Of a stretch of DNA of 46,124 nucleotides, positions 1-26,789 are shown in pieces (position 1 is the first letter of the stretch; every line of letters starts with the position of its first letter). Below the pieces are notes generated by a model. That model had not been told where the DNA came from and ran no database searches. It was given only the letters and a program-made list of their open reading frames with translations. The position numbers and the translations under genes are program-made. The DNA is from a virus. Lineage: Duplodnaviria > Caudoviricetes. Where the stretch lies: positions 1 to 46,124 of the IMG/VR virus record IMGVR_UViG_3300042914_001187, one strand, 5' to 3'.

Positions 1-151
1 CGTGGAATTGGGATGGGGGTAATGGGGTGTGTGGATTTGAGCGTATACGGGGGAGGGGGACCCTATGCCCACAGCCGGGGATGGGGGGCCGGTGGGGTCG
101 GCACTCCCGCCCCTGATGACCGTACTCCCCCCTGCGCGTTTAAACAATCCC

Positions 152-856
152 TCACTTCCCCATCACGTGCTCGCGCACTGCACTGCTCTCACCCTCAAGC
201 ACTAGTGGCTCCACTATCTGCGCCTTGCTGATGCGCCTGACGTTGCCCACCAGCCTCAAGTGCTTCGCCAACTCCTGCTTCAGTTGATCTGCGGTGAGCC
301 CATCGTCATCCTCTTGCACTGTCTGCTTGAACATGCCCACTGTCTTGCCCATCAGTTCCAATGCTTTGAGTTTCGATCCTTCCTGCTTGGCTTCTTTGCT
401 CAGTTCCAACAGCGACTTGATCACATAGCGTTTCACCGCGATGGCATCATCTGTCAGTGCTTCCACCGTCTGACCCCAATGCTCTTGCAGCATCCTTTGC
501 ACCCTTATGTCCTGGGCAAGCTTCCATGCTGATGCCTTCAGTGTTCTGTCTGTACCCTTGGCGTTTGGGTATGCGTCTCTGTAGGCTTCGAGTTGTGTTT
601 TCCCTTCTATAAGGCCCTTGGCGAACTCCATCATGGAACTTGTCATAGGCTTGAGTCTCGGCGTTCCTTGTAGTTCTCCGTCTACCCTACGTTTTGGCGG
701 TACTGCGTCCCTGGCCATCCGTTCCGCTTCGCTCAGTCCGGGCGCTGTATCGTTCTGGTTTCCATCACCATCGAGTGTCACCTCTTCCAGCCGCCGCAGT
801 AGCTCATCCTTGGTCGTCCTGCCATTGCCCCGCATCTGATCATCACCCAGGCCCAT
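152..856 (-). CDS. terS: Terminase small subunit
   Basis: TerS-type HTH segment (FAKGLIEGKTQLEAYRDAY...SAWKL) and C-terminal KLKALELMGK..GMF. Start moved to ATG 856, which has an AGGGG SD; the ORF-track extension to 952 runs through DnaA boxes. Confidence 0.75.
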   Translation of the reverse strand: MGLGDDQMRGNGRTTKDELLRRLEEVTLDGDGNQNDTAPGLSEAERMARDAVPPKRRVDGELQGTPRLKPMTSSMMEFAKGLIEGKTQLEAYRDAYPNAKGTDRTLKASAWKLAQDIRVQRMLQEHWGQTVEALTDDAIAVKRYVIKSLLELSKEAKQEGSKLKALELMGKTVGMFKQTVQEDDDGLTADQLKQELAKHLRLVGNVRRISKAQIVEPLVLEGESSAVREHVMGK

Positions 857-914
857 GTCATCACCCCTTTGCTGTTTAAACCTGTACCACCGTTCGCATC
901 CGCAGTCTATCAGG

Positions 915-1119
915 TTATCCACAGGCTGTGAATAACTCCAGCCGTCATCCACAACTTATCCACATCTTTTGTAAGTTTCGCGTCAGAAAAGCCTTACCCT
1001 GCCCTACCCCTTACCCTGGCCCTGATCGCCCGTTTAAACCCTGGTTGCAATAAATTGGTACTACAAAACTTGTCCACACCCTGTGGATAACTTTGACTTG
1101 TCCACATCTCTGTGGATAA
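915..1119. promoter_or_regulatory. Cluster of eight DnaA-box-like 9-mers
   Basis: TTATCCACA 915 and 956; TGTGAATAA 927; TCATCCACA 945; TTGTCCACA 1070 and 1098; TGTGGATAA 1082 and 1111. Confidence 0.8.
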
Positions 1120-3107: not shown

Positions 3108-3683
3108 ATGTATTCAACCCGTGAAGAATGGCTCAGTGCTGGAGTCGAGGAAGTCCGGCCCCTGTTCGACCTGTATTCAAAGCCCTTGCCTGCCAAGGTG
3201 CGGGTCTCTTGCGGCTTCCCGTCCACCGCCCTGCGGTCGGGTGCTATCGGTGAGTGCTGGATCAACACCGCCTCTGCCGATGGCACCTTTGAGATTTTGG
3301 TGCATCCCAAGCTGGCTGACCCCGTCAAGGTGTTCGAGGTTCTCATCCATGAACTTTGCCACGCCACTGCTGGTGCGTTTAACCATGGGGTCAACTTTCA
3401 GAAGATTGCCGGGGCTATGCACCTGAAAGCGACCGGCTCAGGTCGCCAGCCGTGGAAATCCACTGTCGGGGATGATGATTTTCTGTCGGTCTATGCCGCC
3501 ATCATTACCGGCCTGGGCGACTACCCTCACGCCGAGTTGAAGTCCGACCGCCAGATCAAAAAACAGACCACTCGCCTGCTCAAGGCCGAGTGCCCATCCT
3601 GCGGGTATACCGTGCGCCTGTCCCAAAAATGGGCGGCGCAAGGTCTGCCTACCTGCCCCTGCGGCGATACCCTTTCCCTCTAA
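3108..3683 (+). CDS. SprT-like zinc metallopeptidase with C-terminal Zn ribbon
   Basis: LIHELCH (HExxH), HG..F, CPSCGY...PTCPCG. Confidence 0.8.
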   Translation: MYSTREEWLSAGVEEVRPLFDLYSKPLPAKVRVSCGFPSTALRSGAIGECWINTASADGTFEILVHPKLADPVKVFEVLIHELCHATAGAFNHGVNFQKIAGAMHLKATGSGRQPWKSTVGDDDFLSVYAAIITGLGDYPHAELKSDRQIKKQTTRLLKAECPSCGYTVRLSQKWAAQGLPTCPCGDTLSL

Positions 3684-3702: not shown

Positions 3703-5139
3703 ATGGCAAACATTTCCCAGACCATCATCCAAATCGCCCGTCTGCCCCTGCCTGTCGTGGCAGGTGCGTACAACCAGTACCACCCCAACCCTCAGGGCGG
3801 GGTTACCAAGACCGATGCAAGCCGCTGGCTGGCCGAGGCGGTCGAGGCTGGCACCCTGAGCATGAACAACATCATGGCCGCCACGCCTTCGACCTTCAAG
3901 GCCGCGCCGACCATCGATCCCGCCATCGGGGCCAAGGTTGATGCAGCCTCGCAGGTTGCATCTGATGCCCGGGCTGATGCCCTGTCTGCGCTCAATCGCA
4001 TCGATGCCATCGACGACAACATCAGCGCAGTGATCCAGACAATGGCTCGCGTCGAGCACAAGTCCAACACCCTGTCCGACAAGATCGATGGCATCAAGAT
4101 TGATGACCGTAGCATTAAGGTAGCGGTCGATTCAATTATTGGCGACCACTTTTCGCGCTGGTCTAAACGCATCGAGGACGCGGGTGCCCAACAGGTTGTG
4201 GCCGACCAGACCGCCGCGCACCGCACTGGCAGCAAAAGCTGCTTTGAGGTTTTCGGCATCGATGTTTTCGATGTTAAGGGTCAGCCACTGATGGTTGACC
4301 TTTGGAACCATCCCCAGGCACCTGCGGTAGACCCCGACTTCATCTGGACTGAGGGCATTCTCAAGCACCTGCTGCTCTCTGACCGGACGGGTGAGAATCT
4401 TTGGTTTGGCGGCGAGAAAGGCACCGGCAAGTCTGAGACGGCCCGACAGTTTGCAGCCCGTACCGGACGCGCGTTTAAACGCATCAACTTCCACAAGCAC
4501 ACAACCGTGGAAGAGTATGTCGGCGCTGTGGGCATCGAGGACGGCAAGACCGTCTTCCAGGCCAAGGACTTCCTGCTGGCCTACACCATGCCCTCCACCG
4601 TGATCCTGCTGGATGAGGTCACCAACGCTGACCCAGGCGAACTGGCAACGCTCAATGGTTTCCTTGAGCCCAACGCCTGCGTGTCCTTTGGGGGTCTGAC
4701 CCATACCCGCGCCGAGGGGGTGCTGGTCTTCGTGGCCGACAACACCTTCGGCAATGGTGACGACTCAGGCAGGCACGCTGGCACCCGCATGCAAAACTCT
4801 GCCCTGGTTGATCGGTTCTCGCGGGTGATCCAGTTTGACTACCTGCCCAAGGACTCTGAGATCGAGGCCATCACCCGCCGCGCCGGCTGCAACAAGGCAA
4901 TCGCCGAGGCGATTCACTGTGCCATTCAGGTTGCGCGGCACAAGGTCAAGAGTGCCGACATTGTGGACGCACCATCGATCCGGTCTGCCATCGCCTTTGC
5001 CCGGGCAATCCAAGTGCTTCCCCTGCGTGAGGCTTGGACGACCACTGTCGTGGCCCGACAACCCGTCGAGTCTCACGCTACCCTGATGGGCATCTTCGAT
5101 GCCTGCATGAATCAAGAATTTTTCAACGACAACATTTGA
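3703..5139 (+). CDS. MoxR/CobS-like AAA+ ATPase
   Basis: Walker A GEKGTGKS, Walker B ILLDE, NSALVDRF, SIRS sensor; long helical N-terminus. Confidence 0.88.
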   Translation: MANISQTIIQIARLPLPVVAGAYNQYHPNPQGGVTKTDASRWLAEAVEAGTLSMNNIMAATPSTFKAAPTIDPAIGAKVDAASQVASDARADALSALNRIDAIDDNISAVIQTMARVEHKSNTLSDKIDGIKIDDRSIKVAVDSIIGDHFSRWSKRIEDAGAQQVVADQTAAHRTGSKSCFEVFGIDVFDVKGQPLMVDLWNHPQAPAVDPDFIWTEGILKHLLLSDRTGENLWFGGEKGTGKSETARQFAARTGRAFKRINFHKHTTVEEYVGAVGIEDGKTVFQAKDFLLAYTMPSTVILLDEVTNADPGELATLNGFLEPNACVSFGGLTHTRAEGVLVFVADNTFGNGDDSGRHAGTRMQNSALVDRFSRVIQFDYLPKDSEIEAITRRAGCNKAIAEAIHCAIQVARHKVKSADIVDAPSIRSAIAFARAIQVLPLREAWTTTVVARQPVESHATLMGIFDACMNQEFFNDNI

Positions 5140-5147: not shown

Positions 5148-6734
5148 ATGAAACGCTATCACGGATACTCGTTTAAACAGGCCGTCGAAAATTTGACACG
5201 CAAGGTCGCGGCCGAGTTTGGTCTGGCGGTCAGGACGATCAACTGGCATGCAGGCATCCAGACCGCCGGTACAAACAAGGACGGCGACATTTACTTCGCT
5301 GACGTTGCGGATGACGCGGTGCTTTATGACATTGATGTTCAACGCTATGTCGGTTTTGTGGTGCATGAACTGCTGCACCAAAAATATACCGACTTCAACG
5401 TCAACCACCACGACCAGTACGTCAACCAACTGCACAACGCGGTCGAGGATGCCTGGATCGAGCATACGGGTATCGATGCCAAGCTGACCGGCAACATCGA
5501 TGGGCTGCTGACCGCGCTGCTGGATCAGATTGTGGGCGAGGCCAATGCCACGGTGACTGATTGGGCAGACCCTGCTCAATACCCGTTTATCTTCGCGGTC
5601 TACCTGCGGCGGCATCTGAACACCCATGTCCCGGTGCCTGCTGGCCTGGAGCCCATCATCATTGGCGCGACTCAGCGAATCGATGCCTGCCGCTCCAGCA
5701 AGGACACGCTGGCCCTGGCTGAGTGGATCATGGGTCAACTCCAGGCCCTGCCAAAGAACCCCAAGAACACCCCCGACAAGGCCCCCAAAGGCCCCTCAGA
5801 GGCTCCATCTGATGACGGCAATGGTAAGGGTGCAGGCGAGGCCGATAAGGGCTCCAGGCTTGGCGACAACCCGCACAAAAGCCCAGGCTCTGCCCGGGCT
5901 CCCAAAAAATCTGATGAGGCGGTGGAGGTTGAGCCCTCCATCAAGGTGCCCGAGGGCAAGGCCGGTATCGGGTCATGGTCTGAGCATGCAACACTGACCC
6001 CGCCTGACCATCACCTGCGCAGCAACCCCTGGCTCACCGACCAACTGGCGGTGCCTGCGCGGCTGCGGTATGAGGTCAAGCGCCTGTTCGACAACTCTGG
6101 GCGCGAGGACTTCCAGCGCAACCGCAGGGCTGGCTCGATCAATGTCTCGGCCCTGCACAAGATCGGCATCACCGACAAGCTGTTCCAGCGCCGCCATGCG
6201 GTTGAGGGCATCGACTCTGCGGTTGTGATCTGCCTGGATGTTTCGGGCTCGATGTTCGATGACGGGAAAAAGAATAAAAAATACAACATGAGCAACCGCA
6301 TCGTCCAGGCTGCTATGGCAACCAGGGCGCTGCTGGATACCCTGCAAAAGGCCCAGGTCGAGACCTGCGTCCTTGCCTTTGGCTCGTTCACTTCAGTGGT
6401 CAAGCCCTGGGGTGAGCATGCGGTCAAGGCTGCGGCAAAGATCAACAGCATCGGCAACGGCGGGTCAACCAACGACTACTTCGCGGTTCGCTACGCCCAC
6501 AAGCTGCTGCTCAGTCGCCCCGAGCAGCGCAAGATTTGCTTTGTCATCACCGATGGCATCGGCAAGCCTATAGCAGTGCGCAACCAGTGCGAGGCAGGCA
6601 ACAACCTGGGCATCACCACCATCGGCATCGGCATCGAGCAGGACGTTAAGCATGTATACCCTCAGTCGGTGCGGATCACTGACGTTGGCGACCTGGGCAC
6701 CGTGTCATTCAAACAGATCAAGCTGGCAGCATGA
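5148..6734 (+). CDS. CobT-like protein: N-terminal HExxH peptidase-like domain plus C-terminal VWA domain
   Basis: VHELLH...NAVED; MIDAS DVSGS, GGST, ITDG; start at ATG 5148 after GAGG. Confidence 0.85.
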   Translation: MKRYHGYSFKQAVENLTRKVAAEFGLAVRTINWHAGIQTAGTNKDGDIYFADVADDAVLYDIDVQRYVGFVVHELLHQKYTDFNVNHHDQYVNQLHNAVEDAWIEHTGIDAKLTGNIDGLLTALLDQIVGEANATVTDWADPAQYPFIFAVYLRRHLNTHVPVPAGLEPIIIGATQRIDACRSSKDTLALAEWIMGQLQALPKNPKNTPDKAPKGPSEAPSDDGNGKGAGEADKGSRLGDNPHKSPGSARAPKKSDEAVEVEPSIKVPEGKAGIGSWSEHATLTPPDHHLRSNPWLTDQLAVPARLRYEVKRLFDNSGREDFQRNRRAGSINVSALHKIGITDKLFQRRHAVEGIDSAVVICLDVSGSMFDDGKKNKKYNMSNRIVQAAMATRALLDTLQKAQVETCVLAFGSFTSVVKPWGEHAVKAAAKINSIGNGGSTNDYFAVRYAHKLLLSRPEQRKICFVITDGIGKPIAVRNQCEAGNNLGITTIGIGIEQDVKHVYPQSVRITDVGDLGTVSFKQIKLAA

Positions 6735-7127: not shown

Positions 7128-7247
7128 ATGAACTGGCCCTTTCCACCGTTTCCCAACCCGCTGGACAAGCCGGGGCAACTTCCCCGTCCTGCACCCTTCC
7201 AACCATCAGACGCGGATGAACCCGCACCATTTATCAGGAGCGTTTAA
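7128..7247 (+). CDS. Pro-rich small protein (MNWPFPPFP...)
   Basis: Packed between neighbouring genes; starts with WPFP. Confidence 0.5.
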   Translation: MNWPFPPFPNPLDKPGQLPRPAPFQPSDADEPAPFIRSV

Positions 7248-7412
7248 ATGAAAAAGTTTGAGATTGAATATCGCCGCACCAGTTTTGTCGTGGTACATGT
7301 CGAGGCCGAAACAAAAGAAAAGGCAGAAGACATGGCATGGGATCAACTTGAAAAAGACCATTACACCGACAACGCCGAATGGGAGGTTGAAACCATCACC
7401 CAGGTTGAATAA
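7248..7412 (+). CDS. Small acidic protein, DpnD/PcfM-like (54 aa)
   Basis: AGGAG SD; VHVEAETKEKAEDMA pattern. Confidence 0.65.
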   Translation: MKKFEIEYRRTSFVVVHVEAETKEKAEDMAWDQLEKDHYTDNAEWEVETITQVE

Positions 7413-7415
7413 AGA

Positions 7416-7443
7416 AAGGGGGCCATGAGCCCCCTTCCTGTTT
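7416..7443. terminator. Intrinsic terminator between convergent operons
   Basis: AAGGGGGC-CATGA-GCCCCCTT, A-rich upstream and T-rich downstream. Confidence 0.75.
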
Positions 7444-7538
7444 GTCCCGTCGGCGGAAAGCGAATAAAACGCCCGACAAACTGATGCGGTTATTTTTAAC
7501 GGGCCACTCGCACCTTACGCCCGGACGGCCTGCACCCG

Positions 7539-9218
7539 TCAGAATGCGTCCAAGTTTTCCGTGTAAACCCCTGCTGTTTTGTTGTACAGCAAGCTGGTCT
7601 CACCCTGAGACCCTATCCACCTGTAGCGGCACTTCCAGACCGCTATCTCGACAACTGCGCCCTGCCCCCTGTGGACAGTCACGCCGCAGTCTGTCTTTGC
7701 CCACCACGCCATTGACCCGCTGATGCTCATGCCATCTGGGCGGGGCTGATCATTCCCTGATCGCGTCATCTTGGCTGGATGCGCCACGAACCAGCAATGG
7801 ACTTCGTGCGCCATGCAAAACTTCCTCACCTTCGTCAGCATGTTGCTGATCGCCTCAGTCTCAGCTACGTCCTTGCGGCTCATGTCAATGTAGTTGTACG
7901 GGTCAATCACCATGCCCCGAACCCCCATTCGTTTGACCGATGCCCTGGCCCGATCAAGGATCGAGTCCAGCGTGCTTGGCTCTTCCCCGTTTGTGTCCAT
8001 GAAGATGAAGTGATCATTGACCCATTTAAACGCGGCATCCTTGGTCTGCGCATTCATCCTGTCGCGGCCATCGTGGAAACGCATGCCCGTGTAGATTTCC
8101 ATGAGCCTGACAATGTGGGTCTCGGGCTGGTTCTCAAACGAGCAGACCACAAACTTCCAATCGTTTTTCCGGGCGAGGTTGACCATCAACTGATCCACGA
8201 AATTGGACTTGCCCGATGACGGGTAGCCGGTGACGACCGTCAACTGTCCAGGCCCGACCGTGTAGATTTCATCGAGGGACGGGTAGCCGGTGCTGACCCC
8301 GCGCCCGTTGCCTTTGACGTAGAGGTCTTCGATAGACTGTTTAAACTTGCCTGCCTCGCTGATGCCGCTGATCGGATACGGCTCGGCGGCATTGATGACC
8401 GTAGCTACCTGAGAGGGGTGATCAAGCAAAACTTCGTTCAGGTCTTTTTTGTCAAACCTTGCGACCCTGCATTTTTCCTTCCCGATGCGTCTTGCAAGTT
8501 CTTCTGCGAGGGCCTGCCCGGGCGTGTCTTGGTCTGTGGCAAGCACAACGTATGGGGCTGCGTCGAGTATGTCTCGGGCGTTCCAAACATAGGCAAAGCG
8601 TTTATCTTCTGACGGCAGAACCTTCCCGTCGGCCACCTTGATTGGAGCGCCTGCGGGCACGCTGAGTACGTTGTTTAAACCTGCCTCCATCGCTGACAGG
8701 CAATCCATCTCACCTTCAACGATGATGATTGGCTGGCCCTTTTCAATGTGTTCCAGGCCAAAGAAATCATGAGCCCCGCCGCCTTCTTGGGTGAAGTCCT
8801 TCTCTTCAATGGATCGGTACTTGGCTGCGACCAATGCCCCGTTCCTGAAGTATGGGAAACCGATTGATTCGGTGGCCCTGCCAAGCTTGGCAAACCACTT
8901 GTTCGCCGAAAACAGCTTCGCTCTTTCTGCGGTCTGACGACTGATGCCTCTACTCTCCAAGTAAGCGTAGTGCCTGTCCTGTAGCACTTCGCTTGTGATC
9001 ACTGGGTTTGGTACGGCTGACAATTTTCTCTCCTGTTTTTGAAGTTGCACCGATCCCTCTGCGGCGCAATGATGGCAGTGATAGAGCACCGCCCCGTCTG
9101 GCTTACGGGTCAGCGTCATGTCTTTGATGTTTTTTTTCTTGCGCTCTGGCAAGCAGAACGGGCATACGACCCGTGCGGTGTTGTCGAAATACTGCTGACG
9201 CAGAAGTTCTTCAATCAT
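7539..9218 (-). CDS. Bifunctional DNA primase-helicase (T7 gp4/Twinkle-like)
   Basis: Zn finger CPFC...CHHC, TOPRIM (VEGEMD, DQD), SF4 helicase GYPSSGKS, VIDPYN. Confidence 0.93.
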   Translation of the reverse strand: MIEELLRQQYFDNTARVVCPFCLPERKKKNIKDMTLTRKPDGAVLYHCHHCAAEGSVQLQKQERKLSAVPNPVITSEVLQDRHYAYLESRGISRQTAERAKLFSANKWFAKLGRATESIGFPYFRNGALVAAKYRSIEEKDFTQEGGGAHDFFGLEHIEKGQPIIIVEGEMDCLSAMEAGLNNVLSVPAGAPIKVADGKVLPSEDKRFAYVWNARDILDAAPYVVLATDQDTPGQALAEELARRIGKEKCRVARFDKKDLNEVLLDHPSQVATVINAAEPYPISGISEAGKFKQSIEDLYVKGNGRGVSTGYPSLDEIYTVGPGQLTVVTGYPSSGKSNFVDQLMVNLARKNDWKFVVCSFENQPETHIVRLMEIYTGMRFHDGRDRMNAQTKDAAFKWVNDHFIFMDTNGEEPSTLDSILDRARASVKRMGVRGMVIDPYNYIDMSRKDVAETEAISNMLTKVRKFCMAHEVHCWFVAHPAKMTRSGNDQPRPDGMSISGSMAWWAKTDCGVTVHRGQGAVVEIAVWKCRYRWIGSQGETSLLYNKTAGVYTENLDAF

Positions 9219-9463
9219 TTCTGGCTGCCGTCAGACTTCCGTTTAAACGATCTGTTGGCGCTGGCGGACTTGACTCGCAGATTGCTGCGGGTGGTTTTGC
9301 CGCCTTTCCCGAGAGGGGTGATGTGATCTACGTCTTTGCCATCACCCTTGGTGACGACTCCCTCTCTCTCCAACATTCGACGGGCTTTGTTTCTCTGCGC
9401 CCGTTTCTTTTTGACTGCGGGTGTCCCGTCATAGTTCTGATATTCGGCTTTATAGTCGCGCAT
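9215..9463 (-). CDS. HNH endonuclease-like protein
   Basis: DVDHITPL..GG...SNLRV...ANRS. Confidence 0.8.
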   Translation of the reverse strand: MRDYKAEYQNYDGTPAVKKKRAQRNKARRMLEREGVVTKGDGKDVDHITPLGKGGKTTRSNLRVKSASANRSFKRKSDGSQK

Positions 9464-9571
9464 GGTGTTGCTCCTGCTAAAGGTGGGGTACTCCAGACTG
9501 TTCCTTACCTACCTGACATTCCATGGATGTATGGCACGGCGCGGAGGTGCGTGAGGTGATCAACGCTCAGG

Positions 9572-9796
9572 CTAGTGTCTGTTTCCCCCGTCATCTGACA
9601 TTGTTGATTCAATGATGCCGATCATCAGACTGAGCATCGTGACTTCGTCCATGTCGAACGTGGCAAGGCTGATCTTGCCATCGCGCAGGGTCACAACGAA
9701 CCCCGCAGCATCACCATTCTTCATGTCGATGTAAGCTTTACCGATCAGGTTTAACGACTTCTCCCGGTCGATAACCAGTGTGTCATCTTTGTCCAT
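9572..9796 (-). CDS. Hypothetical protein
   Basis: GGAGG SD before ATG 9796 (MDKDDT...). Confidence 0.6.
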   Translation of the reverse strand: MDKDDTLVIDREKSLNLIGKAYIDMKNGDAAGFVVTLRDGKISLATFDMDEVTMLSLMIGIIESTMSDDGGNRH

Positions 9797-9854
9797 CGGG
9801 CCTCCGTTTAAATTGGATACCCGAGAAGGGTGACCACAATTGAGTTTAACGAAC

Positions 9855-10347: not shown

Positions 10348-10364
10348 ATCCCTGTATTCCCCCT

Positions 10365-10590: not shown

Positions 10591-10601
10591 GTGAAACGGG
10601 C

Positions 10602-10716: not shown

Positions 10717-10727
10717 GCAGTGAATGA

Positions 10728-13746: not shown

Positions 13747-13748
13747 TC

Positions 13749-16908: not shown

Positions 16909-17051
16909 AGAGAATTCTTTGCTGGATTTTTGGACACCGCAACACCATCAGTTGCGTGGTTGATGGGAAAGTTACGCACGACAGGTGCGAACGATGCGGC
17001 GCTGATCTGCCCATTGCATACCCGCACCATCGAGCAAGGGGGCAAGTATGA
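16905..17051 (+). CDS. DUF1660-like Zn-binding protein (48 aa)
   Basis: Hand-translated: LCWIFGH...RCERCG. Confidence 0.65.
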   Translation: MKRILCWIFGHRNTISCVVDGKVTHDRCERCGADLPIAYPHHRARGQV

Positions 17052-17224
17052 CTGAAGACGTAGCCAAGATGGCACGGGAGGCTGGGGTTCTGACGGGGTA
17101 TAACTCTGATCTGTTTAAACGCTTTGCAGCCATCGTTGCTGCACGATGCGCTGAGATCGCTTACGAAGCCGAGCCGTTTCATTCTGCGGACCTGATCCGC
17201 AAAGCCTTTGGAGTGGAGGAATGA
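17048..17224 (+). CDS. Small hypothetical protein (58 aa)
   Basis: Hand-translated: MAREAG...KRFAAIV...FGVEE; ATGA overlaps at both ends. Confidence 0.65.
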   Translation: MTEDVAKMAREAGVLTGYNSDLFKRFAAIVAARCAEIAYEAEPFHSADLIRKAFGVEE

Positions 17225-17316
17225 ATCACTGGGAATACGCCATCTTCACTGCCGTGTTCATCATGGTCTGTTACATGTTTGCTGAGTCCCTGTTCTGGTG
17301 GCTCAGTTTTTACTGA
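17221..17316 (+). CDS. Single-TM peptide (31 aa)
   Basis: GGAGG SD; hydrophobic. Confidence 0.5.
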   Translation: MNHWEYAIFTAVFIMVCYMFAESLFWWLSFY

Positions 17317-17331
17317 ACGTGGATGTGTTGA

Positions 17332-17604
17332 ATGACCCAGAACAGTCAATACGACATCAGCCGCACCAGACGGATGCTGGCTGCATCGCTTCGCATGAAG
17401 GGGTTTAGCTACAACAAGATTGGCAAAATCTTTGGCATAAGCCATGAACGCGCCAGACAGATTATTTGGAAACACGATCAAGAGGCTCTTGAAGCCATTA
17501 GGGCTGAAAACCGAACAGCAAACAGTCCGTTATTTAAACATGAGCTTATTGCGCTTCAAAAAGTTCAGGACTGGTTACATTTTTTAACGGAGACACCAAA
17601 ATGA
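17332..17604 (+). CDS. sigma70 region-4-like HTH protein
   Basis: GFSYNKIGKIFGISHERARQI. Confidence 0.7.
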   Translation: MTQNSQYDISRTRRMLAASLRMKGFSYNKIGKIFGISHERARQIIWKHDQEALEAIRAENRTANSPLFKHELIALQKVQDWLHFLTETPK

Positions 17605-17963
17605 TTGACTTCATCTCAACCCACCCAAACGCTGACTCTCAGACTATTGCCTGCGCCAGATTGCTGGCCGCCGTCATTGCTCAAGCCATTGAAGACGCCT
17701 CAAACAAGGACGGTCGGTCTGGCGATGCCTCATCCGCCACGGCCTGGATTTTTGAAGAAGGCAGCGCCTTTGAGCAATATGCCAACCTGATTGGCGCTAA
17801 CCCAAAAGCTTTGCGGGCGGCTCTTATTGCGCCATCAGAACCGGGTCAGTTCACCCCCAAGAACAGCCGGTTCGACGAAAGCAAACGCCGGACATTGCGT
17901 TTAAACCATATCCAATGGCTCAAGCGGAAAGAGTTGGCCAGACAAATGGCAGATAAACAATGA
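17601..17963 (+). CDS. Hypothetical phage protein
   Basis: LLAAVIAQAIEDA...AWI pattern; GGAG SD. Confidence 0.65.
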   Translation: MIDFISTHPNADSQTIACARLLAAVIAQAIEDASNKDGRSGDASSATAWIFEEGSAFEQYANLIGANPKALRAALIAPSEPGQFTPKNSRFDESKRRTLRLNHIQWLKRKELARQMADKQ

Positions 17964-18250
17964 TGTACCGCAGCAAGAAACTGCTGGAGGCTGTGCGGGA
18001 GGCACCCTGTATGCACTGCGGGGCTCAGGATGGAACCATCTGCGCGGCCCATTCCAACCAGTTGCGGGACGGAAAAGGCAGAAGCCTGAAGGCCCACGAC
18101 TACAGGATAGCGGCCTTGTGCCACCTCTGCCACTTCCAGATTGACCAAGGTTTCCTGTGGAACAAGGAACAGAAGCGCGACATCTGGGATGAGGCCCATC
18201 GAAAAACCATTGGCTGGCTCTTCGATCAGGGCATCATTTCAATTCGCTGA
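17960..18250 (+). CDS. DUF1364/DUF968-like His-Cys nuclease
   Basis: PCMHCG...AAHSN...GKG..LKAHD...ALCHLCH. Confidence 0.75.
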   Translation: MMYRSKKLLEAVREAPCMHCGAQDGTICAAHSNQLRDGKGRSLKAHDYRIAALCHLCHFQIDQGFLWNKEQKRDIWDEAHRKTIGWLFDQGIISIR

Positions 18251-21200
18251 CGGCCTTCTTGACTGACTTGATGTTGGCGGTCAGGTTGTTTTCCATCCTG
18301 CCCAGGTCAACCAACAGGTCGCGCTTTTCATCAGATTCCATGTCAGAAGAGTTGATCGTGCGGCGCATCTCACGCAAGTCTTTCATGCTCTTCTCGATGT
18401 CTCTGACGTAGTCTTTGACCGCAAGAAGACCAATGTTGTCTTCAAGGTACTTGGAAAACTCTTCTGGTCTGGCGGTCTTCTCCAGCAGGCTCATGGTTCT
18501 GACGACAGTATCCACCGACCGCTGCAACTCATAGAACTGCGTGACGGAGCCCCGGGCCTCTGGGTCAAGGGCGAACCGTTTAACCACCGGCAACTGCTCA
18601 AACCGCAGGGATGCCTTGGGCACATCTGAAAACTCACTGGAGACGGCGTCGATCACATCTGTGACGTAGCCGCCAATCGTTCCCGTGTAGCCCTTGATAA
18701 GTTGATCCACCTTCAGCGGCGACAGGTTCAGCAGCCCACCAATGTACTCGGCGGTCTTTGATGTGCCGGGGCCGACTTGGAATCTGGCCTCAACCTCTTG
18801 CATACCCTGCCCGACGATAGGCCGCATGGTGAAGAAGTTGAAGTTCGTCGCCACCTCAACGATTGGTTTAAACGTTTGAGGGATTGGGTTGAAGGCGAAT
18901 GTGTTGGCCAGAGCCCGCAGGGTGGACATGCCAAGGTCTTTGCCGGTGTCGTTGCCCATGAAATAAGCAATGATCCGTTCAGGCATGGTCTTGAACAGGG
19001 TTCCAACCTCAAATGGGATGGGCACCCGGATGCCAACACTGGTGAAAATCCAGTTGTTGTCTTTGGTTTCCTCTTCCTGCTTCTGGTATTCCTCATCATC
19101 AGCCACGGACAGGTAGTACATGGACGACAGAGCCGCCATGGTCATGCCCCGAATCCAGAACCGGCGCTTGATTTCCTTTGCATCCTGGGTATTCATCTGG
19201 CCTGCCGAAGCCCGATAGAACAAGTCCAGACCCTGCAACCGGGCGTTGAAGAACGGGATCGCTGCGGTGGCGATGCGGATCAGGACGTTATTGCCCTTGC
19301 GGCTGAAGTTCATCACCTCCATGGCCCGGGAAATCGCTTCCGCCTCGTTGCCGGTCTCTTTCATGACCCGCTCATACACCGCCATGCGCGTAGCAGCGTC
19401 CGACGCGGTGGTACCCTTCTCCAACCCTTCCCACAGGGATTTAAACGGCCTGAGCAAGATGGCGTCTTTACCTGCCTTCTTGTTCAGGTCTGAACTAAGG
19501 GTTTCCCCTGACTGCTCAATGTTCTGGCTGAACTCATACCCGCCGACGACCCCGGCGTTGAACAGGGCCTGAAGGTTCTTGTCCTTTGCGGACAGGGCCT
19601 TGCCAAAGTTGACCATGGTGCCAACGATGGGGGTAATCTTCTGGCCGCTTGTGACGTACGACGACAGGGAGTCGCGCAGCAGGTTGGCCATCATGAAGCC
19701 CGGGTCCTTGGTCACCAAGTTCCTCAAGACATTGGCAGGCCCAGACAACAGCCCCATGAAGGGCAGGTCAGGCATGTTTAAGCTCTTCAGTGCATCGATA
19801 AACAGTTGATCTGACGAGCGGTAGTACACCACCTGGCCGTTTTCCAGTTGCGTGTAAACATCTATGCCGGTAGCCGGTCCAGGCAGGCGCTCCGTCTCGT
19901 TGATCTCCAGCGCCACCTTGGTGGCCCTCTGGGCCGCGATGTTCTTCATCCCGGAGTTGATCATGGACTGGGTGTTCCTGACCATGGTCTCCAGGAAATC
20001 AGCCAGAGGGGCTTCTCCACCCTTGAGTTCTTTTGGCCCCCTGACGCCAGAGATTCCACCAAACGGGTTCGGCCCGATGGTTTTGTCCAAATCCAACTGG
20101 CGATAGAACGGGATGTAGTCAGCGTACTGCGTGTAAACCTGCGCCCGCTCGCGGCTTAGAACGCCGGTCTGGACCGCGAAGTTCACGATGCCGTTGTTAA
20201 ACGCGATCAGGTCTTTCTGAACCTGAACAAACTCAGGGTGCTGGGCCTCAATCTCTTGGGCCAACTTGGCGTCTTTAGCGTTGTACAGCCGTTCTTTGCC
20301 TTCATCCAGCAGACGGCGACCGCGCTTCCAGCCAGCCCAGAACTGATACCGCTGGTAGACCTCTGGGTCACCGTACTTCGCAAGAGGAGCCAGAGCTTCT
20401 GTCAGGCCCTTGACGCTGGTGTCGATGGTGGTGAAGCCGTTACGGTAGACAGGAACCCCGCCTTGGCGGTCTCCAATGCCCATGGCGGATGCTGCAACAC
20501 CCGCTGATACATCAGACTGAAGGGCGGCAAACTCTGCGCTCTGGTCAGCCAGAAGTTCAGGGCCGCCAGCCAGACGAATCTTTTCCCGCATCCTTTGGTC
20601 AAACTTGGCCAGAGAGTCATAGCGGTTGATGAACATCTGACGCAGGCTGGTGTAGTCATTCTTGAACCCACCAATGACTCGTTCTTTAAAGCCCAACTCA
20701 ACCCGGCCCGGGGCAACTTGTTTGATCCGGTCGTTGGCCGCTTTGGACAGAGTGGGCAGGCTGAACTTGATCTCACTCTCCATGCGAGTGAACTTCTCCC
20801 GCGCCCTCTCCCGGTTGTCATAGGACAGTGGCTCAATAACAGTAGCCAACAAAAACGAACTGACCGAGTCATCGTACTGCGCATTGATAAATTTGTGCGC
20901 TATGGGCTCTGCAACCTCGGCTTCTATGTCAATGTAGATTGGGACTCTGCGATACCCTGCCTCATGAAGGGCAAGCATTCTGTGCCGACCCTCATGGCTT
21001 GTGATCTTCCATTCCCCGTTTCGCTCGACAACACTCAGGTACAAAGGCTGACTTTCTTTTTTAAGCCTTTCAGTATCCAGTGGCTCTTGCTCTTTGCGCA
21101 GACGGTCCAGCGTTTCTGGCGATGCCGTGGCTTTAACAAAGTCCATCGGGTCAACGAACGCAAGATACCCCTTGGTCTTTTTCTTAGCCGAGCTTTGTGT

Positions 21201-24200
21201 GTACATGGACTCGTTGTACAGGCGGTCAAACCGCTCTGGCGTGTAGCGAACCTTGCTCAGGCTGTACCTGACATCCTTGGTCTCAAGGTTAAACTGGCCG
21301 TCGTTGCCCGTGATGGACTTGACCTGCTGCGGTTTAAACACAGCGTAAGACATGGGGGCGGTGCGGTTGCGGCGAACCACATAGCCATCAAAGCCAAGCT
21401 TGCGAATCGTCCGCATGATGTCTGGGCGCTCAACCACCTTGGGGAAACCCTGCGCCAAGATGCCTTTCAGGCCATCAAGGATGTTCTCAACATTGACGGT
21501 GGGTGCGCCGCCAATCTGCTTGTTTATCTGCTTGGCTACGTCACCAATCTGGCGGTCCATCGTCTCCGTGTAGTCATAGGCATCCATGACCTGCTGGACA
21601 TGCTCTTTGTTCCTGAAGTCGAACGGCGTCATGGCGCGGGCGTACAGCGGCATGATCTTCATCCGCTCAGGAGACAGTGACAACAGAACGTCATCCATCT
21701 CTTTCTTGATGAGGTTGTAGCTGTCAAAGTCAGGAATGTTGCGCGTTGCATCGCGCATGAACTTCTCACCCTGAGCCTTGGTGATCCTGTCCTTTGACAC
21801 AGCCTCATCGACCGCCTGCTGGAAAAATGGCAGCTTTTCGTCCTTGTTCAGGGCCTTGTAAACCCTCTCACGCAGACGATCCTCTGCCATGCGGCCCCAC
21901 TTGGCTGACTCTTCTGCGGTGTCAGACAGGTAAATGACCCCGTCATTGAACTCAAAGAAGTTGGATGTGGTGGCGTGGAAGAACTTCTTGGCTTTGCCGT
22001 CTTCGTCAACCCACTGGCTTCCGGCGATGTACTGTTTAAACTCAGGTGTGTCGGGAACCTTGACGGCCTCTGCGGCTTCCTGAGCCTCTTTGGCAGTTGG
22101 GAATGCTACGCCCCGCAGGCTGTACCGCACATCCGGTGACTCAAGGCTGTAGGTGCCAACGTTGCCGGTGGCTGACTTGACCTGATTGGGCTGATAGACG
22201 GCAAGGTTCTTGCGCCCATGCTCTTTGACGTAAAAAGAATCAAAGCCAGCATTCTGGATGGCGTCTTGGAAATCTGCGTTCTCAATGGACTCCCAGCTAC
22301 CGGAGCGAATGTCTGCGGGGTCATAGGCGTCTTCAGTTAACTCAGCCAAGACCTTGCGAATATGGCCGGGGTTCTCGTAGTCAAACGGACGCTCTGCCCG
22401 CACGTACATGGGCATGATGTGCGGGCCGGTTGGAAGAAGATTGATGAATTCCTTTTGGATGTATTCCCGTGCCTCAGGGGTGGCATCTTTAAGGTCGCCC
22501 GTCTTCAGGCTTTCAATCATCTCTTTTCCAAGAGAGTCCTTGCCGTAATCCTTTTTAATTGCAGAGATGGCCCTCTTCACCCCGCCATCGATCTGCTCTT
22601 TGGACAGATACTTTTCGGGATTGCGAGCCACGCTTTCATAGCTGTCGGCGGCAAAACGGGTGGCAAACTCCGGGTCGTCCGTCAGGAAGATTGGTGCGCC
22701 ACGCTCAGTCTTGCGGGTGAAGTCTGTGGTGTCTTTTGCCAGCCCGTGGTACATGACCATCGGCGTACCGTCTTTGTTGACGATCTTGCTGTCACCAAGC
22801 CAGCGTTTAAATTCAGGGCTGGTGGGTGCCTTCAGGCTGAGTTTTGCTGCTTTGCCGGAAGGCTTTTCTTCGACGGCAGGCTCTGGTCGAGCTTTTTCAG
22901 CGCGTTGTACCTCTCGTCCGGCGACAGCCCCAGCGTCAGATTTTCGACCGAAGACCACAGACGGTCCTGCTCGTCCATCACCCTCACTGGCCTGCGCGAT
23001 GATTGCCTCTTCGTATCCAATGTCATCTGCTTTTACCCCGCTCAGTTTTGCGTACAAGCGTTTCTCATAGTACCAGAGAGCAGCCTGAATGTCTGCCAAC
23101 GTCAGATCAACGCCGCTCTTGCGCAGCTTGGCCTGCGCGTTACGGGCTGCCTTGTACATAAATGCGCGGTCAGAGGCTGTGAATGGGGCCTCTTCCAGCA
23201 TTTCGTACTCATTCTTGTAGATGGTGTTGGCCATCTTTTCAAGATTGTGGTCAAACAAAAGCTGCTCGTATGCATCGCCTGCGGCAGTCTCTGCTTGTTT
23301 AAACCATTCAGGCTTTGCCGCCTTGGTGCTGGGCTCCTTGCCACCAGCCAAGTATTCAAGTTCAGTGGTGAACCCAAAGTCTTTGTACTTGTTCCGCAAC
23401 GGGATTGAGGCCGCCACGACTTCATCGCGGCTTGCACTCGGTTGATCCATCATGTCGCGGAACTTGTTAATCGACGCCGTCGTGGCTTTGGGGATCAACA
23501 AACCACGCATCCGATTGATGGATCGAGTCCACCACAAGTCCATGGTCAGGTAGCCTTCTGAGCCGGACAGGTTGGCGTAGAACGCTCCAAGCTTGGGGCC
23601 GAAGTAAATGGCTGCGCGGGGGACGACCGTGTCAGCCAGATAGCTGCCGTCAGACTTCTCACCCATTTCACGCAGACGGGCGTTCATGTCTTTGACTGTG
23701 ATCTCTTCCAAGAGATGCTTTTCAAAGTCTGTGTTGTGGTCTTCCAGCAGACGCTCGATGCTGCGCAAATTGTTTTCCAGGGCGGTGGCCCGACGGTTGC
23801 CCATCGCAACCATGGGTTTGCCGTCGCGGAGTTTGGAGTACAACTCAACCGCGTTTGAAATGTTCTTGGTTACCTTTTCGCCGTTGGATGTAACGGCCAC
23901 GATGGCCGAAAACACCGAGCGGGCGTGTTGGTTATCAGCCAACTCAGGGAACCTTGCCTGCAAGCGTTTAACCGCGTTGGGGTAGTTGTTGGAGTACCAA
24001 CCCAGCCCAGTGCCGGTCTTGGCCGTCGTGCCCAATTGGTAAGACACTTCATCAGCTATCGCATCAGCAATCTTGACGACATCATCGTCGGTCAAGTTCT
24101 TACGATCCATCGCGCCATGCTTTTTCAACGTGTCGTTGTTCAGGGCACGGGCAATGTCGCGGACATTGTTGAATCTGCCGCGCTTGGCTTCAGTGTTTAA

Positions 24201-26789
24201 ACCCAAAGCTTCACGAGCCGCATTGTCTTCGTCTTCTATGACAGAACGGGTAGACAGCGGGATGCGTTCCCGCGCAAGACTGAACTTCTCTTGGCCGTAT
24301 GGAACATTTTCAAACTCTTTGAGTTTAGCCCGATAGGCAGGCAATACCTTGTCGTAAATGATCTTGTCTAGTTGTTTTTCTCCGTTTACACGCTCGGTGG
24401 ACACGCCCAGTTCTTTCAGGCGCTTCTCGATGCCATCCTGAACTTTGGTCAGGTTTGTATCTGCCCTACCATTACCGGGGAGCCAGCGGTCTTCATCTCT
24501 TCTAAGCCGATTTGTTCTGGCACTCTTAACCAGACGATCCACGCCATCATTGATAACATCGTCTATCGTTTTTAGGCTGAGTTTTTCTTGAACCGCAGGC
24601 GTTGCTTCAGCGGCAGGTTTGAGGCGACCGCGCTCAATGCTTTGGAAGATGTCATCAGCAGACTGGAACCCTGCGCCACGCAGAGCCTGACCCAGGCTGG
24701 CGAAGAAGTTCTTGATCTTGCGGTAGAGGGCGGCAATCATGCCCGGGGGTGGCTTTGCCCCCTTGTCATAAGCACCAAAGGCGTCTGCGATTGATTCTTC
24801 AACCACCGCATCGGAGACGTACTGATCCAATTCTTTCCCAGTGAAACCCTTCTGCTCGCCCTCTTTGGTGAACAGATCGACATACGCGTCATAGCGCGAC
24901 CGCTTGTCGTCGTACTTGGTTTCTTTGAGTTCTTTGATCCACTGCTTGTTTGCACGCTCTTCCAGCGCCTTCCATTGCTGGGGCGTGAAGAAACCCAAGT
25001 CCTTCATGGCGTGGAGGGACTCATGGCGCATGGTCTGGACGGGGGTTGCATCCTCCAGAGACACCCGGATCAGCTTGTCCAAGTAAGCCCCGCCAGCACC
25101 ATTCTCAATCCGGTCAACGATGTTCAGGCCAACATCACCCAGGCCGAACTTGCGCATCTGGGGGACGAAGGTCTTGTAGAGTTCTTTGGCGGTTTCGCGT
25201 CGTTGCTGTGTCTGTTTAAACACATCTTCGCCAACCGTCTGCTGGACTACGGCCTCTGCTTCGCCCAAAGTTTTGAACGTGCCGACGGGCTTGTTGTCCG
25301 GCCCGAGGACGTTGAACTGCTCGTTTACACGCTCAATCTGCCCAAAAGGCATGACCGTAAGAGGCTTGGCCAACGACTCCGAGCGGTCGTACAAATCTTT
25401 AATTTTCTGCGCCGACTCATCCATCATGGTCGGCATTTGAGTTTTGAGCGACTGATACTCTTCGGTGTTGGTCTGCTCGGTGGCCTCTAGACGCTCCAGC
25501 TTGTCTCTGGCCTTTTGAACGTCAGCGTTTATCTTTGCTTCGTCCTGCAAGAGCTTGTTGCGCTCTTCGGCCCTGATCTTGGTCAAGGACTCAAGCTTGG
25601 CGGTGGCTTCCTCTTGGGTGTCCACCACAGACAGGGGCTCATCCCTGCCCTGAGCCATGATGCTGAAGCCCTGCGGCACAGTCTCCCGGCCAGTCTCTTC
25701 CCGGTTGATCTTGAAACCACCGGGCAAGACATCAGGGAACCGCTGGGCGAGTTCTTCTTCGGTGACGGCCACACGGGCCTCTTCCTCGCGGCGAATGGCC
25801 TCCCTGTCCGGGCCCCTAATCGCGGCGATGGGGGCAGAGCCCAGCAGCCCCAATAGGCCCTCTTGGGTGGCTTGACCGGCCACGCCCTCAAACAAAGGCA
25901 CATCCCTGCCCTCGCGCTGAAGGGCAAGGTTTGCAGCCAGACGCTCTTGGCCACCCTGAATGGCTTCCGTGGGAACATCGACTGCGGCGGCTGTACCAAT
26001 ACGCCCCAGCATGGATTGGCTGGCTCTTGCTGCTGCGCCCGGGGTCAAAAGACGTTCTGCGCCGTACCTGCCTGCAACCAAACCGACGCCCGCACCCGTC
26101 AAAATCTGATCAATGTTCTGGCCCGTATATTCTTGCGCAGCGGCAGCCTTGACACGGGCCTCTTCTTCGCTTCGACCGTCCTCAATCTCTGCCCTGTAAA
26201 CAGCATCGTAAATAGCGCCCTTGACGGCACCAGCGCCCTGTGCAGTGCCAATCACAGTTGGAGAGGCTTTAGCCACCGCATTGGCGGCCTGAACAGATCG
26301 TGCTCCAAGCCCAAGAGCCGCAGCGGCGGCGGGGCCAAAAAGCATCGTTGGCAAATACGGGGCGAAAGAACCAACAGCCTGAGCGGCAGACTGAAGTGGC
26401 GCTTCTGCGATGTTTTTGGCGGCAGCTTTAATCTCTTCCCAGGTGCTGCCAGTTGCTTCTGCCTGCCTTAAACGCTCTTGCTGGCGTTGTAGCTCCGCCT
26501 GACGCGCAGACGACATCCCAGCCTGAGACGACCGAGCAAGGTCTTCAAGTTTTTGAGACGCAACATTTCCCGCCCCAAAAACATCAGTGAGGGCTTGGGT
26601 GCTGCCATAAGCGCCCTGGGCAAACGACGCAGCAAGATCGCTTAGACTAAACCCTGCTGGCCCAGAAGACTGCGCCGCGCCGGGCTGCGCAGCAATCATT
26701 CGTTTAACCGTCGTCTGAATTACGCTTGGATCAGTGCCATCGGGGAATTCAAGGACGCGACCATCAGCAAGTTCGGCTCTGATCGTCAT
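18234..26789 (-). CDS. Large polyvalent injected protein (metallopeptidase, glycosylase-like domain, two ADP-ribosyltransferase-like domains, ParB-like domain, LPD38-like C-terminus)
   Basis: RHESLH; GPKLGAFYANL...MDLW...QAALW; two segments of the type EFK.W...HG/HAT...IMP.Y...P.QVKS.TGN.G; EGRHR; RVPIPFEVG. Confidence 0.8.
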   Translation of the reverse strand: MTIRAELADGRVLEFPDGTDPSVIQTTVKRMIAAQPGAAQSSGPAGFSLSDLAASFAQGAYGSTQALTDVFGAGNVASQKLEDLARSSQAGMSSARQAELQRQQERLRQAEATGSTWEEIKAAAKNIAEAPLQSAAQAVGSFAPYLPTMLFGPAAAAALGLGARSVQAANAVAKASPTVIGTAQGAGAVKGAIYDAVYRAEIEDGRSEEEARVKAAAAQEYTGQNIDQILTGAGVGLVAGRYGAERLLTPGAAARASQSMLGRIGTAAAVDVPTEAIQGGQERLAANLALQREGRDVPLFEGVAGQATQEGLLGLLGSAPIAAIRGPDREAIRREEEARVAVTEEELAQRFPDVLPGGFKINREETGRETVPQGFSIMAQGRDEPLSVVDTQEEATAKLESLTKIRAEERNKLLQDEAKINADVQKARDKLERLEATEQTNTEEYQSLKTQMPTMMDESAQKIKDLYDRSESLAKPLTVMPFGQIERVNEQFNVLGPDNKPVGTFKTLGEAEAVVQQTVGEDVFKQTQQRRETAKELYKTFVPQMRKFGLGDVGLNIVDRIENGAGGAYLDKLIRVSLEDATPVQTMRHESLHAMKDLGFFTPQQWKALEERANKQWIKELKETKYDDKRSRYDAYVDLFTKEGEQKGFTGKELDQYVSDAVVEESIADAFGAYDKGAKPPPGMIAALYRKIKNFFASLGQALRGAGFQSADDIFQSIERGRLKPAAEATPAVQEKLSLKTIDDVINDGVDRLVKSARTNRLRRDEDRWLPGNGRADTNLTKVQDGIEKRLKELGVSTERVNGEKQLDKIIYDKVLPAYRAKLKEFENVPYGQEKFSLARERIPLSTRSVIEDEDNAAREALGLNTEAKRGRFNNVRDIARALNNDTLKKHGAMDRKNLTDDDVVKIADAIADEVSYQLGTTAKTGTGLGWYSNNYPNAVKRLQARFPELADNQHARSVFSAIVAVTSNGEKVTKNISNAVELYSKLRDGKPMVAMGNRRATALENNLRSIERLLEDHNTDFEKHLLEEITVKDMNARLREMGEKSDGSYLADTVVPRAAIYFGPKLGAFYANLSGSEGYLTMDLWWTRSINRMRGLLIPKATTASINKFRDMMDQPSASRDEVVAASIPLRNKYKDFGFTTELEYLAGGKEPSTKAAKPEWFKQAETAAGDAYEQLLFDHNLEKMANTIYKNEYEMLEEAPFTASDRAFMYKAARNAQAKLRKSGVDLTLADIQAALWYYEKRLYAKLSGVKADDIGYEEAIIAQASEGDGRAGPSVVFGRKSDAGAVAGREVQRAEKARPEPAVEEKPSGKAAKLSLKAPTSPEFKRWLGDSKIVNKDGTPMVMYHGLAKDTTDFTRKTERGAPIFLTDDPEFATRFAADSYESVARNPEKYLSKEQIDGGVKRAISAIKKDYGKDSLGKEMIESLKTGDLKDATPEAREYIQKEFINLLPTGPHIMPMYVRAERPFDYENPGHIRKVLAELTEDAYDPADIRSGSWESIENADFQDAIQNAGFDSFYVKEHGRKNLAVYQPNQVKSATGNVGTYSLESPDVRYSLRGVAFPTAKEAQEAAEAVKVPDTPEFKQYIAGSQWVDEDGKAKKFFHATTSNFFEFNDGVIYLSDTAEESAKWGRMAEDRLRERVYKALNKDEKLPFFQQAVDEAVSKDRITKAQGEKFMRDATRNIPDFDSYNLIKKEMDDVLLSLSPERMKIMPLYARAMTPFDFRNKEHVQQVMDAYDYTETMDRQIGDVAKQINKQIGGAPTVNVENILDGLKGILAQGFPKVVERPDIMRTIRKLGFDGYVVRRNRTAPMSYAVFKPQQVKSITGNDGQFNLETKDVRYSLSKVRYTPERFDRLYNESMYTQSSAKKKTKGYLAFVDPMDFVKATASPETLDRLRKEQEPLDTERLKKESQPLYLSVVERNGEWKITSHEGRHRMLALHEAGYRRVPIYIDIEAEVAEPIAHKFINAQYDDSVSSFLLATVIEPLSYDNRERAREKFTRMESEIKFSLPTLSKAANDRIKQVAPGRVELGFKERVIGGFKNDYTSLRQMFINRYDSLAKFDQRMREKIRLAGGPELLADQSAEFAALQSDVSAGVAASAMGIGDRQGGVPVYRNGFTTIDTSVKGLTEALAPLAKYGDPEVYQRYQFWAGWKRGRRLLDEGKERLYNAKDAKLAQEIEAQHPEFVQVQKDLIAFNNGIVNFAVQTGVLSRERAQVYTQYADYIPFYRQLDLDKTIGPNPFGGISGVRGPKELKGGEAPLADFLETMVRNTQSMINSGMKNIAAQRATKVALEINETERLPGPATGIDVYTQLENGQVVYYRSSDQLFIDALKSLNMPDLPFMGLLSGPANVLRNLVTKDPGFMMANLLRDSLSSYVTSGQKITPIVGTMVNFGKALSAKDKNLQALFNAGVVGGYEFSQNIEQSGETLSSDLNKKAGKDAILLRPFKSLWEGLEKGTTASDAATRMAVYERVMKETGNEAEAISRAMEVMNFSRKGNNVLIRIATAAIPFFNARLQGLDLFYRASAGQMNTQDAKEIKRRFWIRGMTMAALSSMYYLSVADDEEYQKQEEETKDNNWIFTSVGIRVPIPFEVGTLFKTMPERIIAYFMGNDTGKDLGMSTLRALANTFAFNPIPQTFKPIVEVATNFNFFTMRPIVGQGMQEVEARFQVGPGTSKTAEYIGGLLNLSPLKVDQLIKGYTGTIGGYVTDVIDAVSSEFSDVPKASLRFEQLPVVKRFALDPEARGSVTQFYELQRSVDTVVRTMSLLEKTARPEEFSKYLEDNIGLLAVKDYVRDIEKSMKDLREMRRTINSSDMESDEKRDLLVDLGRMENNLTANIKSVKKAVSELK

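Follow-up and report, generated by a model that had tools for sequence, protein, structure and literature searches.

What reads a short DNA word that recurs along one half of a phage genome, and to what end? The question is raised by IMG/VR virus record IMGVR_UViG_3300042914_001187 (Caudoviricetes), whose positions 1 to 46,124, hereafter the window, carry dispersed copies of the palindromic octamer GTTTAAAC. The window is an incomplete lake phage genome with podovirus-type ejection genes; terL, portal and capsid genes are missing from it, its relatives measure about 56–66 kb, and megablast of both of its halves against GenBank phages gave no match. We find that the octamer follows a gene for a SprT-like zinc metalloprotease, which, judging from comparative genomics, very probably reads the sites directly. 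We further propose, at a probability of roughly 45%, that the docked protease clears host DNA-tracking defence proteins from the phage DNA.

The octamer copies are real, under selection as DNA and widespread. All 22 exact copies counted in a preliminary description of the window, made from its letters, are present (Table 1), and none follows 25214 anywhere in the window, in line with its statement about the last 21 kb. Its ten one-mismatch copies are likewise all there, one of them at 13619 rather than 13620, among 36 in total. The window's guanine–cytosine (GC) content is 55.2% over 46,124 bases, not the assumed 57% or so, and base composition predicts 0.44 copies of GTTTAAAC, the less than one that had been expected. 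TTTAAA occurs 34 times up to 25,300 and 3 times beyond. Five sites are read through the Leu codon TTA, as had been noted, and the other eleven genic sites through TTT-AAA. The selection on DNA suspected from this is borne out by 1,000 synonymous codon shuffles, in which genic GTTTAAAC averaged 1.27 copies with a maximum of 5, against the 16 observed; the encoded proteins leave room for the octamer at 23 positions in the left part, 16 of them occupied, and at 2 in the right part. Conservation in a relative, a comparison of the kind that the description had suggested, points to the DNA as well: blocks aligned at 82–90% identity with the closest complete relative (G001) take in 17 of the 22 sites, of which 16 are identical and one has turned into GTTTAAAT. 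An assembly artefact is ruled out: 10 of the 12 sites in positions 1–12,000 are also covered by contigs from a second lake run, with zero differences. Beyond the window, 34 of the first 39 related loci show enrichment of GTTTAAAC, and complete relatives of the palindrome type hold 18–54 copies each.

The preliminary description had offered binding sites for a phage protein as one explanation. Comparison among relatives supports that idea and points to a partner gene it had not named, the SprT-like one, in place of those it had. The ribbon–helix–helix (RHH) gene at 14972 is present in the site-poor loci L029 and L251, the giant gene (whose product has no Pfam ParB match) in the site-free G004 and G013, and the helix–turn–helix gene at 17332 and the open reading frame (ORF) at 14058 were undetected in most site-rich loci. 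Within the family, the word does not track the RHH gene, the recombination genes, the giant gene, terS or the HNH gene; when co-occurrence is traced, as had been recommended, it tracks the sprT–cobS–cobT block, whose three genes are always gained and lost together. In two relatives of independent lineages (approximately unbiased test, p-AU 3e-61), ArdC occupies the slot of this block. One of them, G004, has 0 exact sites in 58.9 kb; the other, L251, has 3 in 17.5 kb compared with 19 in 21.6 kb for its sister L248, to which it is 84% identical over 6.1 kb, and it kept 2 of 8 aligned exact sites. L251 also contains a stand-alone 49-codon zinc-ribbon frame (10990–11148, minus strand), a remnant of sprT in a genome that has ardC and has lost most sites.

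Outside the family, sprT and cobST occur apart, and the sites go with sprT. GardenState, Emotion and phage 4A, which carry sprT without cobST, contain 16, 17 and 13 copies of GTTTACAC, and R5C, of the same gene content, 10 copies of GTTTAAAC in 50 kb; the CobS-like ATPase is thus dispensable for sites there. Conversely, both of the two phages with cobST and no sprT have 0 exact sites, and the actinophage relatives without sprT (BaileyBlu, Halsey and Kenzers) have 0 GTTTAAAC and 0 GTTTACAC. Among distinct sprT loci without cobST (at least 8 kb, from the best 80 of each scan, many of them close kin), 344 sites were counted in 48 viral loci, where 49 would be expected, and 207 in 60 genome loci, for an expectation of 19. 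Two Streptomyces genomes of 8–9 Mb have 9 of their 11 and 13 of their 13 copies in the roughly 38 kb that surround sprT; in a third genome, which is of the GTTTACAC type, there is 1 copy. On plasmids sprT adjoins parA; one plasmid with sprT has 3 sites in 22 kb and a Ralstonia plasmid none. A decoy for a host factor, another earlier suggestion, is unlikely, because the word accompanies sprT in several groups of hosts and hardly occurs in two host chromosomes. One contig (G037, 92% complete) has 39 sites and no sprT match; it also lacks terS and cobS, and was left out of the gradient sum below and not counted against the sprT link.

The zinc ribbon of the SprT-like protein is its probable DNA-reading part. 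The window protein matches Pfam SprT-like at E 6e-4, below the cut-off, and has a HELCH motif with H93 as third zinc ligand. The protease motif HExxH has been lost in 33 of 106 distinct family proteins, through at least 5 changes on the SprT tree, with site densities similar in protease-dead (median 16.9 per 10 kb, n = 32) and intact (14.9, n = 64; p 0.37) versions. In the 33 dead proteins, ribbon residues Q153, T155, R156, C162, C165, R170, W175, P181 and C183 are each kept in 30–33. By contrast, a homologue in Armstrong whose HExxH is intact but whose ribbon is missing QxTR, Arg and Trp accompanies 0 sites, and two Ralstonia homologues, which have HExxH too and QTRRH at that place in the ribbon, also have 0 (a similar one has 1). 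Altered ribbons without sites, set against dead protease motifs with sites, argue for the ribbon as the reading element. In a single case (L098), a frameshifted ribbon coexists with 16 sites.

Loss of the motif was seen in one particular setting. A ribbon-only homologue search, blind to HExxH, gave 97 distinct parsed homologues, with 13 loci unparsed; HExxH is intact in all 90 with a full N-terminal part, 89 of which lack cobST. In the family, the HExxH of CobT is present in all 31 protease-dead loci with enough downstream DNA. Within this sample, therefore, SprT drops its motif only where another adjoins. In G006 (40360–41998) and L246 (13965–15761), cobT is split into two frames, peptidase and vWA, a split of the type reported for HHTV-2 in the available text of PMC8651126.

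Structure prediction supports a homodimer. The SprT-like monomer model is confident (predicted local distance difference test score, pLDDT, 95), and viral SprT structure models match it at E 1e-16 to 1e-4. Solved structures gave no match by sequence and none by Foldseek at E ≤ 0.001; the weak matches were abylysin (E 0.008) and human SPRTN (6mdw, E 0.024), and the leads from an ESM Atlas search with the ribbon were all below 0.9. The homodimer prediction scored 0.73 (best of three controls, 0.00), with runs sharing at least 78% of contacts at pLDDT of at least 83; of the solved pairs, 20 of 30 attain the mark for a dimer, as does 1 of 23 single chains. The predicted interface comprises residues 3–7, 32–43, 55–62 and 141–146, and its R5, E6, R32, R43, S56, D58, E62 and H141 are each kept in 33 of 33 protease-dead proteins. 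Such a conserved interface would account for the persistence of the fold where catalysis is lost, and for the loss of most sites in L251, which is left with the ribbon.

Enrichment favours writing the site as YGTTTA(A/C)A(C/T), of which the palindrome is the commonest form in the window phage's family. Over 20 palindrome-type records, GTTTAAAC is enriched 45-fold, GTTTACAC 12-fold and GTTTAAAT 10-fold, and the family-wide enrichment of GTTTACAT is 3-fold; the base before GTTT is usually a pyrimidine. In the same 20 records GTGTACAC is not enriched (7 copies, 12.6 expected), so that one perfect half seems to be needed. Five records rely chiefly on variants rather than on GTTTAAAC. Relatives G008, G009 and G012 (57–58% GC) have 0–1 GTTTAAAC and use GTTTACAC or GTTTACAT instead, whereas R5C, at 61% GC, uses the palindrome alone; GC content alone therefore does not set the variant. 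Either host restriction acting on TTAA or TTTAAA or an altered ribbon might determine the choice. In a distant relative without sprT (L039, 16.8 kb), another word, ATAATTAT, is enriched (7 copies, 0.2 expected) and may be one local repeat.

In the window phage's family the sites lie mostly in genes, and GTTTACAC shows no orientation there. Across 18 genomes, 463 of 622 family sites lie within ORFs. In the ORFs of 25 records, GTTTACAC occurs 149 times in sense and 150 times in antisense; for GTTTAAAT the counts are 67 and 126, and Emotion alone is biased in orientation (15 and 2). Chi and KOPS are oriented motifs for translocases, and a directional signal of this kind was rejected, since asymmetric variants stand on both strands in 17 genomes and their directions differ. 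Spacing is more even than random in R5C (coefficient of variation (CV) 0.40, p 0.005), with p 0.06–0.19 in four other genomes.

The preliminary description saw the octamer as marking one half of the genome. The window is indeed strongly one-sided, but this is the strong end of a family-wide gradient and not an all-or-none boundary: 6 of the 19 variant sites lie beyond 25,221, and the last exact site lies 1.6 kb from the start of the giant gene, so the limit of the exact sites does not coincide with the edge of a gene. In 22 near-complete relatives with sprT (three of them covered to 60,000 bases, 232–471 short of their ends), successive genome tenths, run from the terL start through terS and the early genes, hold 120, 129, 71, 84, 58, 34, 19, 27, 40 and 40 exact sites. 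The first half, on the terS side, thus has 462 of 622 (74%); counts rise abruptly at the terL/terS junction and are lowest over the tail genes. Amino-acid composition of the tail genes was rejected as the cause, because sites per shuffled opportunity drop from 2.7–2.8 to 0.4–0.6 (18 genomes). Density is highest near terS and a DnaA-box cluster, and a symmetric layout centred on an origin was also rejected, as the tenths flanking that cluster hold 120 and 40 sites. In P22-type phages, packaging starts near such a junction and runs into terL. If the same applies here, the dense side would enter the cell first.

Several smaller observations concern this region. Five DnaA-box-like 9-mers, four of them exact TTATCCACA, lie at window positions 915–1119, upstream of terS; such clusters recur in G001–G004, including the site-free G004, and are therefore separate from the octamer. 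Positions 1–130, right after the terS stop, are rich in G/C runs. Breaks near the terS/terL junction are common to the window and contigs G012, G015 and G037, and may reflect a packaging start or a sequencing dropout.

These features can be joined in a single mechanism. The zinc ribbons of the dimer would dock on YGTTTA(A/C)A(C/T), probably holding the protease on phage DNA. Proteolysis would be the output. SprT itself would perform it, with the CobS/CobT pair next door taking over wherever the SprT motif is dead; DNA-tracking host enzymes such as type I restriction complexes are putative targets, and the gradient would mirror the order of DNA entry. ArdC of plasmid R388 joins a DNA-binding domain to a Spartan-like metalloprotease and, in the available text of the report, counters type I restriction even with its active site mutated (PMC7213743). 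Vcrx089–090 of IncC plasmids, an AAA_5 gene pair, is likewise described, in the portions available, as protecting against type I restriction (PMC7498323, PMC11602122). We favour a protease acting on such enzymes because sprT heads the early block and has been replaced twice by the antirestriction gene ardC, because the AAA_5 pair on IncC plasmids acts against the same defence, and because most sites are unoriented and genic. In its broadest form the proposal is tentative and somewhat doubtful: phages and plasmids of several phyla would mark their own DNA with an octamer that docks a dimeric zinc-ribbon protease, which would free marked DNA, and no other, of host restriction or silencing proteins, with the greatest density at the end that enters first, and in the lake family catalysis would have passed repeatedly to a recruited CobS/CobT motor-protease.

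A number of points weigh against this reading. The links are comparative, drawn from sequence, and the rows compared are related. There are only two independent ardC swaps, each of which removed sprT and cobST jointly. Many sprT loci are weak: the level p < 0.001 is reached by only 31 of the 48 viral and 21 of the 60 genome loci, and many plasmids of sphingomonads have about two sites, one of them within a conserved Phe-Lys of sprT itself. Because ArdC works with a mutated active site, the analogy is silent on whether proteolysis matters, and the likeness of the phage CobS to Vcrx089 lies solely in membership of one Pfam family. Further points concern where the sites stand. They crowd at the sprT gene itself, being concentrated at and immediately upstream of it and over the following 3 kb. 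Their density is 17 per 10 kb outside called ORFs and 4.5 inside, a difference of about four times that small genes inflate. In two actinophages, for which the gene list is partial, 10 of 16 and 7 of 17 sites are intergenic, and many lie 8–65 bases ahead of a start codon; in the window, the site at 11191 ends 7 bases ahead of a −35-like box. Finally, in the available text of a study of Cluster AZ phages, which are without an identified repressor, near-twins differ in plaque type: Liebe, with a truncated homologue, forms clear plaques and Maureen turbid ones (10.1101/2025.05.26.655371).

This last group of observations is what one would expect if the same reader did another job, the SprT-like dimer being a dispersed repressor that silences early genes in favour of lysogeny or a carrier state, with the protease motif of SprT, or that of CobT, as its off-switch. 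It is the leading alternative, though we consider it less likely than the anchored protease; much in the placement of the sites speaks for it. The even sense and antisense counts of GTTTACAC contrast with stoperators, the dispersed repressor sites that, in the available account, need orientation to transcription (PMC9283540). Three quarters of the family sites lie in ORFs, and six of those in the window sit in the giant gene. BaileyBlu and Halsey bear an integrase yet have neither the gene nor the sites; none of the 62 window ORFs matches an integrase family, and the gene–site pair is found on plasmids too. Liebe and Maureen differ at three further positions, and a repressor would leave the replacement by ardC unexplained.

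MatP and ParB-type proteins are models for structural site systems, and a structural role would dispense with proteolysis altogether: each ribbon would bind a whole asymmetric site, and the dimer would bridge two sites to loop, compact or partition the incoming genome. The predicted dimer, the lack of GTGTACAC enrichment beside enriched GTTTACAC, the even spacing in R5C, the position beside parA on plasmids and the retention of sites by protease-dead versions all fit this picture. We nevertheless judge it improbable, since a purely structural role would not need the HExxH that is intact in 89 of 89 homologues without cobST.

At similarly long odds, the reader would be something else, a host factor or the CobS/CobT pair, with sprT merely travelling along. 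The joint movement of sprT, cobS and cobT within the family would allow this, but in Actinobacteria and Alphaproteobacteria the sites follow sprT without cobST and cobST alone has none, on which grounds CobS/CobT was dropped as reader; moreover, host chromosomes are nearly free of the word, and altered ribbons accompany the absence of sites. Packaging, replication or programmed nicking, with recognition by terminase, origin or HNH protein, is very improbable. It would suit the density step at the terL/terS junction and the peak near terS and the DnaA boxes, but the site-free G004 has terS, the HNH gene, the helicase and the DnaA boxes alike, and the profile around the cluster is lopsided.

Besides terS and the early block of SprT-like, CobS-like and CobT-like genes, the window encodes a primase-helicase, a RusA/exonuclease/Sak block, a 2851-aa polyvalent protein, and ejection, lysis and tail genes; no methyltransferase family matched among its 62 ORFs. 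The middle of the giant protein varies between close relatives. The tail block (36032–45946) contains short paralogous fibre-like genes in a row (phrog_11355 five times) and is mostly non-homologous to that of G001, where a 1970-aa protein sits.

Table 1. Octamer sites and associated genes in the window.
Feature	Position	Strand	Remarks
Exact GTTTAAAC copies, n = 22	138..25221	.	16 within genes, 6 of these in the giant gene
Exact GTTTAAAC starts, first half of list	138, 874, 1032, 1336, 4473, 5171, 6959, 8339, 8673, 9241, 11191		
Exact GTTTAAAC starts, rest of list	11571, 14434, 15418, 17113, 17899, 18866, 21332, 22034, 23297, 24195, 25214		
Variant sites of the same consensus, n = 19	7242..43296	either	10 GTTTAAAT, 7 GTTTACAC, 2 GTTTACAT
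terS, terminase small subunit	152..952	-	Site density steps up at adjoining terL/terS junction
SprT-like zinc metalloprotease, C-terminal Cys4 zinc ribbon, 191 aa, HExxH intact	3108..3683	+	Probable reader of the sites; predicted homodimer
YPH linker and zinc ribbon (QxTR..C..C...R...W...P.C)	3522..3656	+	Probable DNA-reading part
CobS-like MoxR-type AAA+ ATPase	3703..5139	+	AAA_5 E 1e-12; co-inherited with sprT in the family
CobT-like protein with own HExxH and vWA domain	5148..6734	+	Putative stand-in protease where the SprT HExxH is lost
Giant polyvalent protein gene	18234..26789	-	LPD38, ART-PolyVal; closes structural operon; six sites

The SprT-like protein family is already annotated; its pairing with a genome-wide DNA address fits no tested system. 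The nearest solved folds, if weakly, are those of SPRTN and Wss1, which share HExxH with a third His and a zinc-binding part beside the protease, and for which we know of no dispersed recognition site. A third of the window family, unlike them, lacks the catalytic motif. SPRTN and Wss1 remove DNA–protein crosslinks, according to the available text of PMC7213743. ArdC, although it takes the slot of sprT in two relatives, binds single-stranded DNA through its N-terminal ArdcN, with no site described in the available text (PMC7213743), and the relatives that carry it have no sites, or few in the case of L251. The window protein has no ArdcN (PF08401) or MPTase-PolyVal match at E ≤ 1, whereas both match in L251 and ArdcN in G004.

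The stoperators of Cluster A mycobacteriophages (L5, TipsytheTRex) resemble the present sites in being more than 20 dispersed copies of a short site (22 in the window) with one phage protein as reader, a role here assigned by co-variation. As described in the available text, they measure 13 bases, stand in promoters and in short gaps between genes, follow the direction of transcription and are read by a monomeric helix–turn–helix protein (PMC9283540); those of the window and its family have 8–9 bases, are unoriented and mostly within ORFs, and co-vary with a protease-fold zinc-ribbon protein, a predicted dimer, and not with a helix–turn–helix repressor. For the Cluster AZ 'SprT-like protease' (Lizalica gp46), a DNA-binding tail has been predicted and a role in lysogeny proposed, with no binding site named in the main text, where GTTTACAC and GTGTAAAC have 0 occurrences (10.1101/2025.05.26.655371). 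Vcrx089–090 shares with the window an AAA_5 ATPase carried by a mobile element, and in viral cobS–cobT pairs, to which cobalamin synthesis or virion assembly has been assigned, the vWA partner can bear a peptidase domain (PMC8651126, PMC7824862); the available portions of these reports describe no DNA site for either pair, and the two cobST phages without sprT are site-free. Literature searches with GTTTACAC and GTGTAAAC and phage terms gave nothing, and the site–protein pair was found undescribed in the sources covered, which did not extend to subscription journals or bioRxiv supplements.

The pairing offers a defined site, a protein and natural mutants, and is testable in the cultured phages GardenState, Emotion, Maureen, Liebe and R5C. 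If the SprT-like protein is a repressor, it could be the repressor so far missing in Cluster AZ phages, and the site system would then be of the stoperator kind. If, instead, the docked protease shields marked DNA, it would constitute a counter-defence acting in cis, and could explain the orphan viral cobS/cobT pair.

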